DNA of 64,000 bases. It comes from Gammaproteobacteria bacterium. GTDB taxonomy: Bacteria; Pseudomonadota; Gammaproteobacteria; GCA-001735895. Below are positions 11,760 to 32,920 of this stretch, one piece after another; position 1 is the first letter of the stretch; the number at the start of each line of letters is the position of its first letter. The notes beneath the pieces are model-generated. The model was not told where the DNA came from. It saw only the letters and a program-made list of their open reading frames with translations, and searched no databases. The stretch lies in contig JASJCI010000007.1 in NCBI GenBank assembly GCA_030066085.1, forward strand, positions 28,363 through 92,362, written 5' to 3'. A program made the translations under genes and the position numbers.

Positions 11760-11888
11760 AACCGGGACCCCTGCCTTTGGGGATATATCGCCTACCCTTC
11801 ATAAGTATATTAGTTTTTACTTATATACCGGATACTCCCCTTCAGTTTTTCAGACCTTTATCAAAAATCAGAAGCGGAGGACTTCCTC

Positions 11889-12467
11889 ATGTCGAAAAAA
11901 CTGATCGCAGTACTCACTGGCCTCATGCTAACGCTGAGCATTACTGCGCAGGCCAACCAGCCCGCGACCCAGGCGGCCGAGCCCGCGCCAATCGGTACCT
12001 TCAACCCGTTCGATCCGAACGCGTGGATGAGTGGTTTTGTCCCCGGCACCGGCGCGACCACGGCGGCACTGAAGTTCAACGCCGCGCATCCGGCGGACTG
12101 GATGAAGTGGGTCGATCCAAAAACCCATACCCAGATGCACATGATGTTCGCCAACCCGGCAACCTACGCGCAGTTCGTGCAGCCGCAGTTCTACTTCGAA
12201 TTCATGAAGCCCGAGAACATGATGGCCTGGATGGACTTCAACCAGTATGCCGTCATGTGGGATCCGCAAACCATGACCCACTGGATGAACCCGGCCAGCT
12301 ACATGCACGCGATGGATCCGGCCATGTACACCGAGACCATGAACCCGGCCAACTACATGGTCTACATGAACCCGAACACTTACCTGGCTGGCTGGACCGG
12401 TGGTCAAACTTGCGATCCGAAGAAAAACCCGAACGCAAAGAAGAGCTGGTTCGGTTACCACTGCTGA
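11889..12467 (+). CDS. secreted Met/aromatic-rich protein with tandem 9-aa repeats
   Basis: GGAGG RBS, signal peptide (..TAQA), 20 Met in 192 aa, C-terminal Cys pair, own terminator. Confidence 0.85.
   Translation: MSKKLIAVLTGLMLTLSITAQANQPATQAAEPAPIGTFNPFDPNAWMSGFVPGTGATTAALKFNAAHPADWMKWVDPKTHTQMHMMFANPATYAQFVQPQFYFEFMKPENMMAWMDFNQYAVMWDPQTMTHWMNPASYMHAMDPAMYTETMNPANYMVYMNPNTYLAGWTGGQTCDPKKNPNAKKSWFGYHC
12153..12395 (+). repeat. nine consecutive degenerate 27-bp (9-aa) coding repeats, consensus [ND]PxxYxx[WF]M
   Basis: NPATYAQFV/QPQFYFEFM/KPENMMAWM/DFNQYAVMW/DPQTMTHWM/NPASYMHAM/DPAMYTETM/NPANYMVYM/NPNTYLAGW. Confidence 0.85.
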
Positions 12468-12505
12468 ATTCTGGCATTACCTCCACGGGGATATCATCCC
12501 ATTTG

Positions 12506-12534
12506 GCCGCGGCCCCTCGCCGCGGCTTTTTTTT
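12506..12534 (+). terminator. Rho-independent terminator
   Basis: GCCGCGGC-ccctc-GCCGCGGC followed by T8. Confidence 0.8.
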
Positions 12535-12563
12535 GCCTGCTGCAAATTGCCGCCCTAATATTT

Positions 12564-12719
12564 CGGGGACAGTTTACTTTTCTTTTTCGGGGACGGTTTA
12601 GAGTTAGCCCGAAAGCAAGCGGTTTTCGTTTTCGGGGGTGCTAGGACGCTCACGCGATATGCAGATAAACCGCGGTCTTAGAAACAGTGTCCCCAAAACT
12701 AATTGGTAAACTGTCCCCG
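12564..12719. mobile_element. 156-bp MITE-like element with 14-bp perfect terminal inverted repeats (copy A)
   Basis: CGGGGACAGTTTAC (12564-12577) / GTAAACTGTCCCCG (12706-12719); inner GGGGAC copy 24 bp inside each end; same ends at 57691-57843. Confidence 0.65.
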
Positions 12720-12793
12720 GAACTGGATGGCCGCGGCTTCTTTTTGCACGCTGCAAACGCCGGTTTCATGGCTATAAAATCCGACTCGCCGGA

Positions 12794-32323: not shown

Positions 32324-32920
32324 TTACTTTTTGACCGTGGCGTCGTCGCCCCAGATGTCGACGAGGCGCCGATCGCGACCACAGCCGAAACGATAGTACT
32401 TGTAGCGCACCGGCGATTTCTTGTAGAAGTCCTGGTGGTAGGACTCGTCACCCTTGATCGGAAAGAAGGTCGTGAGCGGCAGAATCGGCATCACGACCTG
32501 CTGATCAGGGAAACGCTGTTCCACGCGGGTTTTGGAGGCCTCGGCAAGCGCGCGTTCGTCGTCGCCGGCAACGAAGATCGCGGCGAGGTATTCGTGGCCG
32601 CGGTCGCAGAACTGGCCGCCATCATCGAACGGGTCGATGTTGACCCAGAAGTGATCGAGGATACCCTGGTAATCGATTACCTCGGGATCGTAGGTGATCA
32701 GCACCGCTTCGTAATGACCGTCATGACGCCCCTTGTAGGTTGGATCGGGATAGGTCCCGCCGGTGAAACCGGAGACCACGTCGGTCACACCCTCGAGTTT
32801 TTCGAAGTCTGATTCCATGCACCAGAAACAGCCACCCGCCAGCACGGCGGTGGCGGCCTGCGCCGGCAGACCGGCCAGCAGGGTAAAGCCCAGGGTGAAG
32901 CTCAGCAACAGGGGTTTCAT
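32324..32920 (-). CDS. msrA: peptide methionine sulfoxide reductase A with signal peptide
   Basis: GGCFWC, HYEAV, YHQDFY; N-terminal signal peptide. Confidence 0.9.
   Translation of the reverse strand: MKPLLLSFTLGFTLLAGLPAQAATAVLAGGCFWCMESDFEKLEGVTDVVSGFTGGTYPDPTYKGRHDGHYEAVLITYDPEVIDYQGILDHFWVNIDPFDDGGQFCDRGHEYLAAIFVAGDDERALAEASKTRVEQRFPDQQVVMPILPLTTFFPIKGDESYHQDFYKKSPVRYKYYRFGCGRDRRLVDIWGDDATVKK

Follow-up and report, generated by a model that had tools for sequence, protein, structure and literature searches.

The 64-kb window analysed here (64,000 nucleotides of contig JASJCI010000007.1, gammaproteobacterial assembly GCA_030066085.1) contains an open reading frame (ORF) at 11889-12467 on the forward strand, which is a real gene and whose 192-aa product is, judging from its sequence, a member of a small, uncharacterised and new protein family. 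Three things can be joined around this gene: a family that is transcribed, a predicted new fold with Met/aromatic chemistry, and a persulfide-type operator that goes together with sox, fcc and YeeE contexts in paralogues. The explanation that we prefer, which is plausible if still somewhat short of probable, is that the gene encodes a sulfide- or persulfide-induced periplasmic protein that would bind or shelter zero-valent sulfur.

Sequence searches of Pfam, NCBIfam and PDB returned noise only and no family match. A word-indexed search retrieved 135 homologues, every one of them 'hypothetical' and most of them 170-230 aa long, and when 1.84 billion cluster representatives were searched exhaustively with a profile, only 159 clusters emerged. 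Long profile matches (1.2-3.7 kaa, with TALPID3, RING or MSP domains) were considered as domain fusions and rejected, since they are eukaryotic low-complexity repeats. Among the GTDB species genomes, the hosts are metagenome-assembled genomes (MAGs) of marine Gammaproteobacteria, the sole exception being one MAG labelled Rhodothermales. Sandy and muddy sediments are their sources, and the hosts include the Gamma 3 symbiont of Olavius algarvensis, which is sulfur-oxidising, Arenicellales, Chromatiales and the sponge-associated Candidatus Poriferihabitaceae. Two or three paralogues from different clades are present in most host MAGs; a paralogue search of the window found no second member in its 64 kb. 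In an Arenicellales MAG with three family genes in tandem, one of the three (L069:6362-7109) is broken into two ORFs that overlap, by either a frameshift or an assembly error. A paralogue in a sponge symbiont (L050:11621-12379, reverse strand), with homologues in L051, L060 and L065, has an N-terminal half made of nearly nothing but Met, Asn, Pro, Ala and Gly (MNPMAMMNPGAMANPMSNPMAMMNPMTMMNP...), an example of the extent to which members may approach pure Met repeats.

The features of the locus are the following (window coordinates):

11779-11788, forward strand: second upstream motif, GGGGATATAT (GGGGATAG or CTATCCC in relatives), recurring in several clades and recognised by eye only
11806-11827, no strand assigned: putative 22-bp palindromic operator, TATATTAG-TTTTTA-CTTATATA, one mismatch from the consensus TATATTAG-N6-CTAATATA
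11876-11881, forward strand: ribosome-binding site GGAGGA, as read from the sequence, 7 nt ahead of the ATG
11889-11954, forward strand: predicted Sec signal peptide, aa 1-22, cleaved after AQA; the hydrophobic N-terminal helix and A-x-A are kept in homologues
12009-12026, forward strand: FDPNAW motif, aa 41-46, with D42 and W46 nearly invariant
12075-12152, forward strand: pre-repeat region, aa 63-88 (FNAAHP..W..DPKTH...H), carrying His80 and His84; predicted local distance difference test (pLDDT) score 87-97
12153-12395, forward strand: nine contiguous nonapeptides, aa 89-169, recognised by period-9 z score, unit scores, column conservation and AlphaFold2 (AF2) helices
12411-12464, forward strand: C-terminal Cys175...Cys192 loop (CDPKKNPNAKKSWFGYHC); 99 of 210 members have the Cys pair and 106 lack it
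12505-12537, forward strand: hairpin resembling an intrinsic terminator (9 pairs, of which 8 are GC), then a T-run

The preliminary description of this DNA had placed an AT-rich promoter with an inverted repeat ahead of the gene. The repeat is present (ATAAGTA at 11801-11807 and TACTTAT at 11818-11824) as part of a larger palindrome, at 11806-11827, that sits where a -10 region is expected; a consensus scan of the upstream region gave no sigma-70 match at threshold, so that the AT-rich promoter is inferred rather than shown. The window contains the palindrome once, versus 0.00 expected in shuffles. In the family it lies upstream of 61 of 92 genes versus 0.6 expected, when up to three mismatches are allowed within 250 nt upstream and the background rate is taken from the same DNA (the 83 family loci of our neighbourhood survey, ~1 Mb in total, which covers 8 kb around family genes). 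It yields a sharp position matrix, its median distance from the start codon is 58 nt, and a comparison of upstream regions finds it in common to family clades that are only 35-60% identical and stand in unrelated genomic contexts. By these measures of sequence, the palindrome is a family-wide conserved operator. In one paralogue clade, perfect copies are found between a divergent MFP-RND operon and a gene for a 598-aa DUF255-type thioredoxin-like protein, and also ahead of ExbB-like genes. A second motif, GGGGATA(T/G)A or CTATCCC, was seen by eye in several clades at 15-40 nt from the palindrome, in either orientation, and may be the site of a second regulator.

Transcription of the family in situ is strong. 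Of the contigs in a metatranscriptome from sediment, 79 that are at least 90% alike cover only 12000-12440 of the window, with a summed depth of up to ~850 (contig depth being a crude measure, and the contigs deriving from relatives as well as from the window strain), while depth is zero over MatE and the glycosylase gene on either side. For the paralogue of the Olavius Gamma 3 symbiont, contigs that are 99-100% identical are found in four worm metatranscriptomes; they start 0-18 nt ahead of the start codon, just downstream of the palindrome, and the genes immediately upstream (~6.0-7.8 kb of the locus) read zero. At 2 kb downstream of the same paralogue, a 630-bp stretch (L049:10778-11410) reaches a depth of up to ~770 in all four worm metatranscriptomes. 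Its contigs run into other sequence at both ends, and the stretch could be a small gene with high expression or else an element that is mobile or repeated.

What might act on the operator can be approached from the genes that adjoin it elsewhere. A scan of JGI metagenome contigs for the exact palindrome gave 120 stretches, 85 of which have it in an intergenic position, and 14 of the 79 adjoining ORFs encode regulators of the ArsR family. On four apparently proteobacterial contigs (L104, L135, L184 and L195), these regulators have the ILC...IYC Cys pair of YgaV, and the order in L104 is ygaV-site-ygaP. In locus L003, a gene for a 105-aa regulator of the ArsR family, which is 5 kb away from a family gene, is immediately preceded by three palindromes in tandem. 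This regulator has two motifs, MILCLL and NLYCK, that are 66 residues apart and correspond to Cys31 (ILCML) and Cys98 (KNVYCP) of Escherichia coli YgaV, which form a tetrasulfide switch (PMC9774250). NCBIfam assigns the L003 regulator to the generic ArsR/SmtB subfamily, and for the palindrome-linked Cys-pair regulators BigR is the best among the specific models, below its curated equivalog cut-off. The E. coli ygaV promoter, which is footprinted by YgaV (PMC9774250), contains a tandem TAATTTAG-N6-CTTAAATA that matches the palindrome at 12 of 16 positions with equal spacing, and the ATTA-N8-TAAT geometry of the palindrome parallels the ATTC-N8-GAAT site of SqrR (PMC9774250). A literature search for BigR and SoxR operators found no printed sequence, and the link between operator and regulator is therefore drawn from the metagenome scan and the E. 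coli ygaV promoter.

The other genes beside the exact palindrome include four rhodaneses, one of which reads as YgaP-like with a hydrophobic C-terminal tail, and two genes (L096) with the metallo-beta-lactamase fold, which is the fold of persulfide dioxygenases. There are also a DUF4395 gene, an AhpD-like gene, MFP and TolC genes and a cluster for secreted Gly/Tyr/Asp-rich proteins. The regulons of BigR, SqrR and YgaV encode SQR, persulfide dioxygenase, rhodaneses and transporters. The family genes resemble them in having, at the window gene and at most relatives, an AT-rich palindromic operator of the regulator's type at the expected -10 position, and in that an identical palindrome accompanies Cys-pair regulators, rhodaneses and metallo-beta-lactamase-fold genes. 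We know of no exported Met/aromatic repeat protein that has been reported as a target of BigR, SqrR or YgaV. Control of the gene by a persulfide-sensing repressor is, in our view, probable.

Two observations made around these sites deserve mention in their own right. Directly behind the exact palindrome TATATTAG-N6-CTAATATA, four contigs (L114, L129, L134 and L196) encode secreted, low-complexity proteins of 140-165 aa that are rich in Gly, Tyr, Asn and Asp (for example ...GYGNWYGDGRGNSYGNFYNNSGYGY...) and have no match in Pfam or NCBIfam; their composition is one that we take to resemble that of sulfur-globule proteins. In Candidatus Poriferihabitaceae (L050:14205-15431), an imperfect site (TATACTTG-N5-CTAATATA) is followed by a 1-Cys peroxiredoxin gene and then by a gene for a 154-aa ArsR-like protein ending in GECGxFxxVHH, the site cluster being ~2.6 kb from a family gene. 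The 154-aa ArsR-like genes of sponge symbionts are without the C-terminal Cys motif of YgaV, and that of L050 may represent a different redox-sensing ArsR subtype; they are suggestive and were not used as evidence.

Some paralogues stand among sulfur genes, the soxYZ, DUF302 and YeeE-type neighbours having been checked by Pfam. In L074, L075 and L081 the family gene is accompanied by genes for a cytochrome c5, a Met-rich mono-haem protein, a dihaem cytochrome c, a TlpA-like redoxin, DUF302 and SoxZ, and in L074 and L081 SoxY, FccB and FccA follow. L082 combines the family gene with DUF302, a haem protein, a YeeE/Sulf_transp gene and SoxB, L077 has a DsrE-like gene, and FccB is found in L045, L069 and L071. 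A TlpA/ResA-like redoxin is encoded in 15 of the 83 loci and DUF302 in 10. Three MAGs, namely JARFPR01 (L009, L056 and L074), JAOTXY01 (L006, L063 and L081) and JAASSH01 (L017 and L075), carry sulfur-cluster paralogues as well as orthologues of the window gene, and relatives of the window organism thus encode SoxYZ and FccAB. Across the 83 loci, sox, fcc and YeeE genes thus stand beside some paralogues, and neither Msr genes nor a cus/cop set is found in any locus.

The Met-rich haem proteins of these clusters are exported and have a single CxxCH motif together with Met-rich tracts (L074:1733-2269, L081, L075 and L082:9617-10552, the last being an extreme case, MMNPAMGMMNPMMGMMNP...); they are always found beside family genes and DUF302. 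Homology of the family to the neighbouring C12 proteins and to the Met-rich haem C42 proteins is not claimed, as the profile match is marginal (E 1e-4 to 0.1 in a database of ~50 sequences). Another arrangement is seen on an Arenicellales chromosome (L061:7270-13352), where an apparent operon directly upstream of napFGHB-like genes encodes, in this order, a TlpA-like redoxin, a family protein, a CpxP/Metal_resist-like protein with a Met-rich N-terminus, a second family protein, a dihaem cytochrome c, a cytochrome b561-like protein, a NarI-like protein and an HdrD-like (CCG) protein.

The protein itself begins with MSKKLIAVLTGLMLTLSITAQA, followed by NQ, which has the look of a Sec signal peptide cleaved at an AxA site, in agreement with what the preliminary description had seen. 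The mature form has 170 aa, 19.5 kDa, a pI of 6.0 and a grand average of hydropathy (GRAVY) of -0.53; it consists of 10.6% Met, 16.5% Phe/Trp/Tyr and 11% D/E/K, with eight Leu/Ile/Val in total. The nine contiguous nonapeptides that had been reported for aa 89-169 are there without indels and with 13 Met, as are the three units ahead of them (DPNAWMSGF at 42-50, HPADWMKWV at 67-75 and DPKTHTQMH at 76-84) and the C-terminal pair, Cys175 and Cys192. The description of the repeat as 'strict' holds for its period, with self-identity maxima at lags 9, 18 and 27 (z = 5.7, 5.6 and 4.2 against 2000 shuffles), but not for its motif, which is degenerate: each unit matches [ND]PxxYxx[WF]M at two to four of the five positions and none at all five. 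The periodicity is kept in homologues, as an alignment of 210 sequences shows, with the consensus N1-P2-A3-[ST]4-Y5-[MAQ]6-x7-[WF]8-M9, in which N/D-P, Y5 and [WF]8-M9 are conserved. Met is the majority residue at position 9, and V, L, I, F or A is found there in a minority of sequences. In the pre-repeat region, N64, A66, P68 and P77 never vary, and conservation exceeds 90% at H80 and H84. The Cys pair, which fewer than half of the members have, is therefore not essential to the family.

With 33 sequences AF2 produced a poor model (pLDDT 57.5), and with 120 sequences one with a pLDDT of 76.6 overall and of 85-97 for residues 61-160. In the latter, each nonapeptide forms one helix of about 7-9 residues beginning at the Pro (one unit has 4 residues only), and some ten short helices, each opened by an Asn/Asp-Pro cap, build a confident core. 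A short-helix solenoid, as had been proposed, fits these helices, its solenoid packing being a prediction only. Foldseek searches with the AF2 models returned no PDB match at E<=10 and, from BFVD, just matches at E>6 that amount to noise. The predicted fold is thus without a detectable solved relative and is predicted to be new, and the family, which the preliminary description had not recognised, stays without a match in Pfam, NCBIfam, PDB sequences or Foldseek. On a helical wheel, P2, Y5, x6 and M9 would lie on one face with W8 adjacent, and positions 3 and 7 are polar or variable. The placing of Tyr5, Met/Ala6, Trp/Phe8 and Met9 on one helix face would therefore line the protein with a long series of thioethers and aromatic rings.

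The model also bears on a structural explanation, in which the protein would be self-assembling or chaperone-like and not specific for sulfur. Terminal FDPxxW peptides could dock on the helical body of the next molecule and so give polymers, or the protein could be a Spy-like holdase under envelope stress. The FDPNAW-type motifs are conserved, are bordered by low-confidence linkers in the AF2 model and are multiplied at both ends in paralogues (distant ones have several C-terminal copies per protein, as NWFDPxxW), and high transcript levels, several paralogues per genome and a CpxP/Spy-family neighbour in four loci go in the same direction. However, nothing in the sequence is a sign of assembly, and the sulfur-type operator and the sox/fcc neighbourhoods would be left unexplained, which makes this explanation distinctly unlikely.

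The abundance of Met invites two further explanations, both of which had been raised in the preliminary description. One is a rechargeable oxidant sink, whose surface Met would scavenge HOCl, chloramines and peroxide and be re-reduced by exported MsrA and thioredoxin-like proteins, after the model of MrpX, which works with MsrP (PMC4436054). In its favour, the protein is periplasmic, with 10.6% Met (and much more in some paralogues), the MsrA gene of the window (32324-32920, reverse strand) encodes a signal peptide of its own (MKPLLLSFTLGFTLLAGLPAQA, cleaved before A) and its product is predicted to be periplasmic, BigR-type thiol-switch sensors could also answer oxidants, and TlpA-like, DsbH-like, DUF255 thioredoxin-fold, 1-Cys peroxiredoxin and AhpD-like genes share the operator or the neighbourhood. 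The presence of thioredoxin-fold, peroxiredoxin and AhpD-like genes in the regulon makes a general role in thiol or oxidant stress possible. The proposed pairing with MsrA fares poorly, however: that gene, whose product carries a signal peptide as expected, lies 20 kb off and has no 22-bp operator, and tblastn with the window MsrA and E. coli MsrB, MsrP and MsrQ found no Msr gene within 8 kb in the 83 loci (~1 Mb). Moreover, by helical-wheel reasoning the Met would lie on a hydrophobic helix face together with Tyr and Trp, and relatives replace it by L, V, I, F or A. MrpX of Azospira suillum is likewise exported, rich in Met and controlled by a stress regulator dedicated to it, but it belongs to the yedYZ operon, is co-transcribed with msrPQ under SigF/NrsF control and is made up nearly in full of Met (about 20%) and charged residues (about 44%) (PMC4436054), whereas the window protein has 11% charged residues, is aromatic-rich and predicted to be folded, and has an ArsR-type operator and no Msr neighbour. 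An oxidant sink therefore appears unlikely.

The other explanation is a periplasmic sponge or chaperone for Cu(I) or Ag(I), CusF-like, with Met, His and Trp ligands. These residues are plentiful, and His80, His84 and His140 are more than 80% conserved. A Metal_resist/LTXXQ protein with a Met-rich N-terminus, the only metal-flavoured hint, is found beside paralogues in four loci, and one clade of paralogues has RND, MFP and TolC genes in its vicinity. This RND pump was considered as Cus-type and rejected (~21% identity to CusA, with the best score for a multidrug-type pump). Against copper, neither CusF nor a CusA-type pump nor a cus/cop set was seen in the 83 loci, where two weak CueO-like matches and one CusC-like match were all that appeared; aliphatic residues are tolerated in the Met columns; none of the sequence searches led to a Cu-binding family already known; and the operator is ArsR-type and not of the CueR or CusR/CopR type, these being the copper sensors of Proteobacteria. 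CusF, CopK and PcoE/SilE are, like the window protein, small, periplasmic and provided with Met, His and Trp, but there is no homology to them, cus, cop or pco neighbours are missing, the fold predicted here is all short helices and the regulator is of another type. The copper proposal is thus weakened and now very improbable.

The third idea of the preliminary description, a coat protein of sulfur globules or inclusions, is the only one of its three to gain support, because of the type of the palindrome and the soxYZ-fccAB and soxB-YeeE clusters around paralogues, although a GRAVY of -0.53 does not describe a hydrophobic coat. In the sulfur explanation that we favour, a repressor of the BigR/YgaV/SqrR type would hold the gene off until sulfane sulfur derived from sulfide bridged its two cysteines and made it leave the DNA, so that the protein would be made when sulfide or polysulfide appears. 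In the periplasm, its Met/aromatic surface would bind or shelter S8 or polysulfane chains coming from FccAB, SQR or SoxYZ, and the protein would serve as their soluble carrier, their buffer or their coat. Within clusters dedicated to sulfur oxidation, the same task would fall to the paralogues whose neighbours are SoxYZ, DUF302, cytochromes and a YeeE-type importer. That the protein binds, buffers or coats zero-valent sulfur in the periplasm is, on balance, a reasonable possibility rather than a likelihood. More doubtful is the bolder version, in which the family would represent a structural class of its own, and this short-helix protein lined with thioethers and aromatic rings, switched on by a persulfide-sensing repressor, would be the missing soluble periplasmic carrier or buffer that keeps S8 and polysulfide in solution. 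In marine Gammaproteobacteria that oxidise sulfur, symbionts of animals among them, it would hand sulfur on between FccAB/SQR, SoxYZ, deposits of sulfur and importers of the YeeE type.

Several points weigh against a sulfur role. Genes for sox, fcc, YeeE or DsrE are found in only ~8 of the 83 loci, and the window clade has only MatE, TRAP transporter and HhH-GPD genes within 8 kb and no sulfur genes. There is no gene for a BigR/YgaV-type regulator inside the 64-kb window, and low-GC contigs pair the same palindrome with other ArsR subtypes, some of the CVC metal/arsenic type. Since several ArsR subtypes use it, the operator alone does not fix the effector, for which the proteobacterial examples serve as our only guide. 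To our knowledge, there is no citable experimental precedent for the binding of sulfur by Met/aromatic surfaces. Finally, the known sulfur-globule proteins (Sgps) are described as extremely hydrophobic (PMC10386293), unlike the window protein with its negative GRAVY and its predicted, confidently modelled helical core.

The comparison with the Sgps of Allochromatium vinosum (SgpA, SgpB, SgpC and SgpD) can be taken further. Shared traits are a small, Sec-exported periplasmic product, internal repeats and several paralogues per genome. The Sgp genes are strongly transcribed under sulfide, and for the window gene the same is a prediction from its operator. Furthermore, sgpD adjoins an exporter for hydrophobes and amphiphiles (PMC10386293), and one paralogue clade here adjoins an RND pump. 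Besides hydropathy, the two differ in size, SgpA-C having 11-13 kDa (PMC10386293) versus 19.5 kDa for the mature window protein, and no sequence similarity to Sgps was detected in any library searched. By the features tested, the window protein does not belong to the MrpX, Sgp or CusF type.

The immediate surroundings of the gene add little to these arguments. The first description of it as standing alone, with a control region and a terminator to itself, is borne out by the layout of the locus, the palindrome and the hairpin (12505-12527) with its T-run. In the window clade it stands alone between the MatE and HhH-GPD glycosylase genes, with a TRAP transporter upstream and a HalD-like oxygenase also part of the synteny, which is kept only among close relatives and was rejected as a functional clue since it reflects shared ancestry. 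Just past the terminator is an element resembling a miniature inverted-repeat transposable element (12561-12722). DNA contigs from the source sample skip 12583-12706, 12594-12699 or 12602-12688, and depth is ~70 at 12512-12595 compared with ~20 around it, which means that the element is repeated and/or polymorphic in the population.

How sulfur oxidisers manage hydrophobic elemental sulfur and polysulfide in the periplasm, and how they move this sulfur to carrier proteins, globules and importers, is a long-standing gap, for which the window gene offers a candidate that is both concrete and cheap to test (a 19-kDa soluble protein and a 22-bp operator). Even if the sulfur explanation fails, the operator defines a regulon, and the fold, as modelled, would be a new repeat architecture. 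Since the family is abundant in bacteria of coastal sediments and in symbionts of gutless worms and sponges, a role in handling zero-valent sulfur would bear on benthic sulfur cycling.

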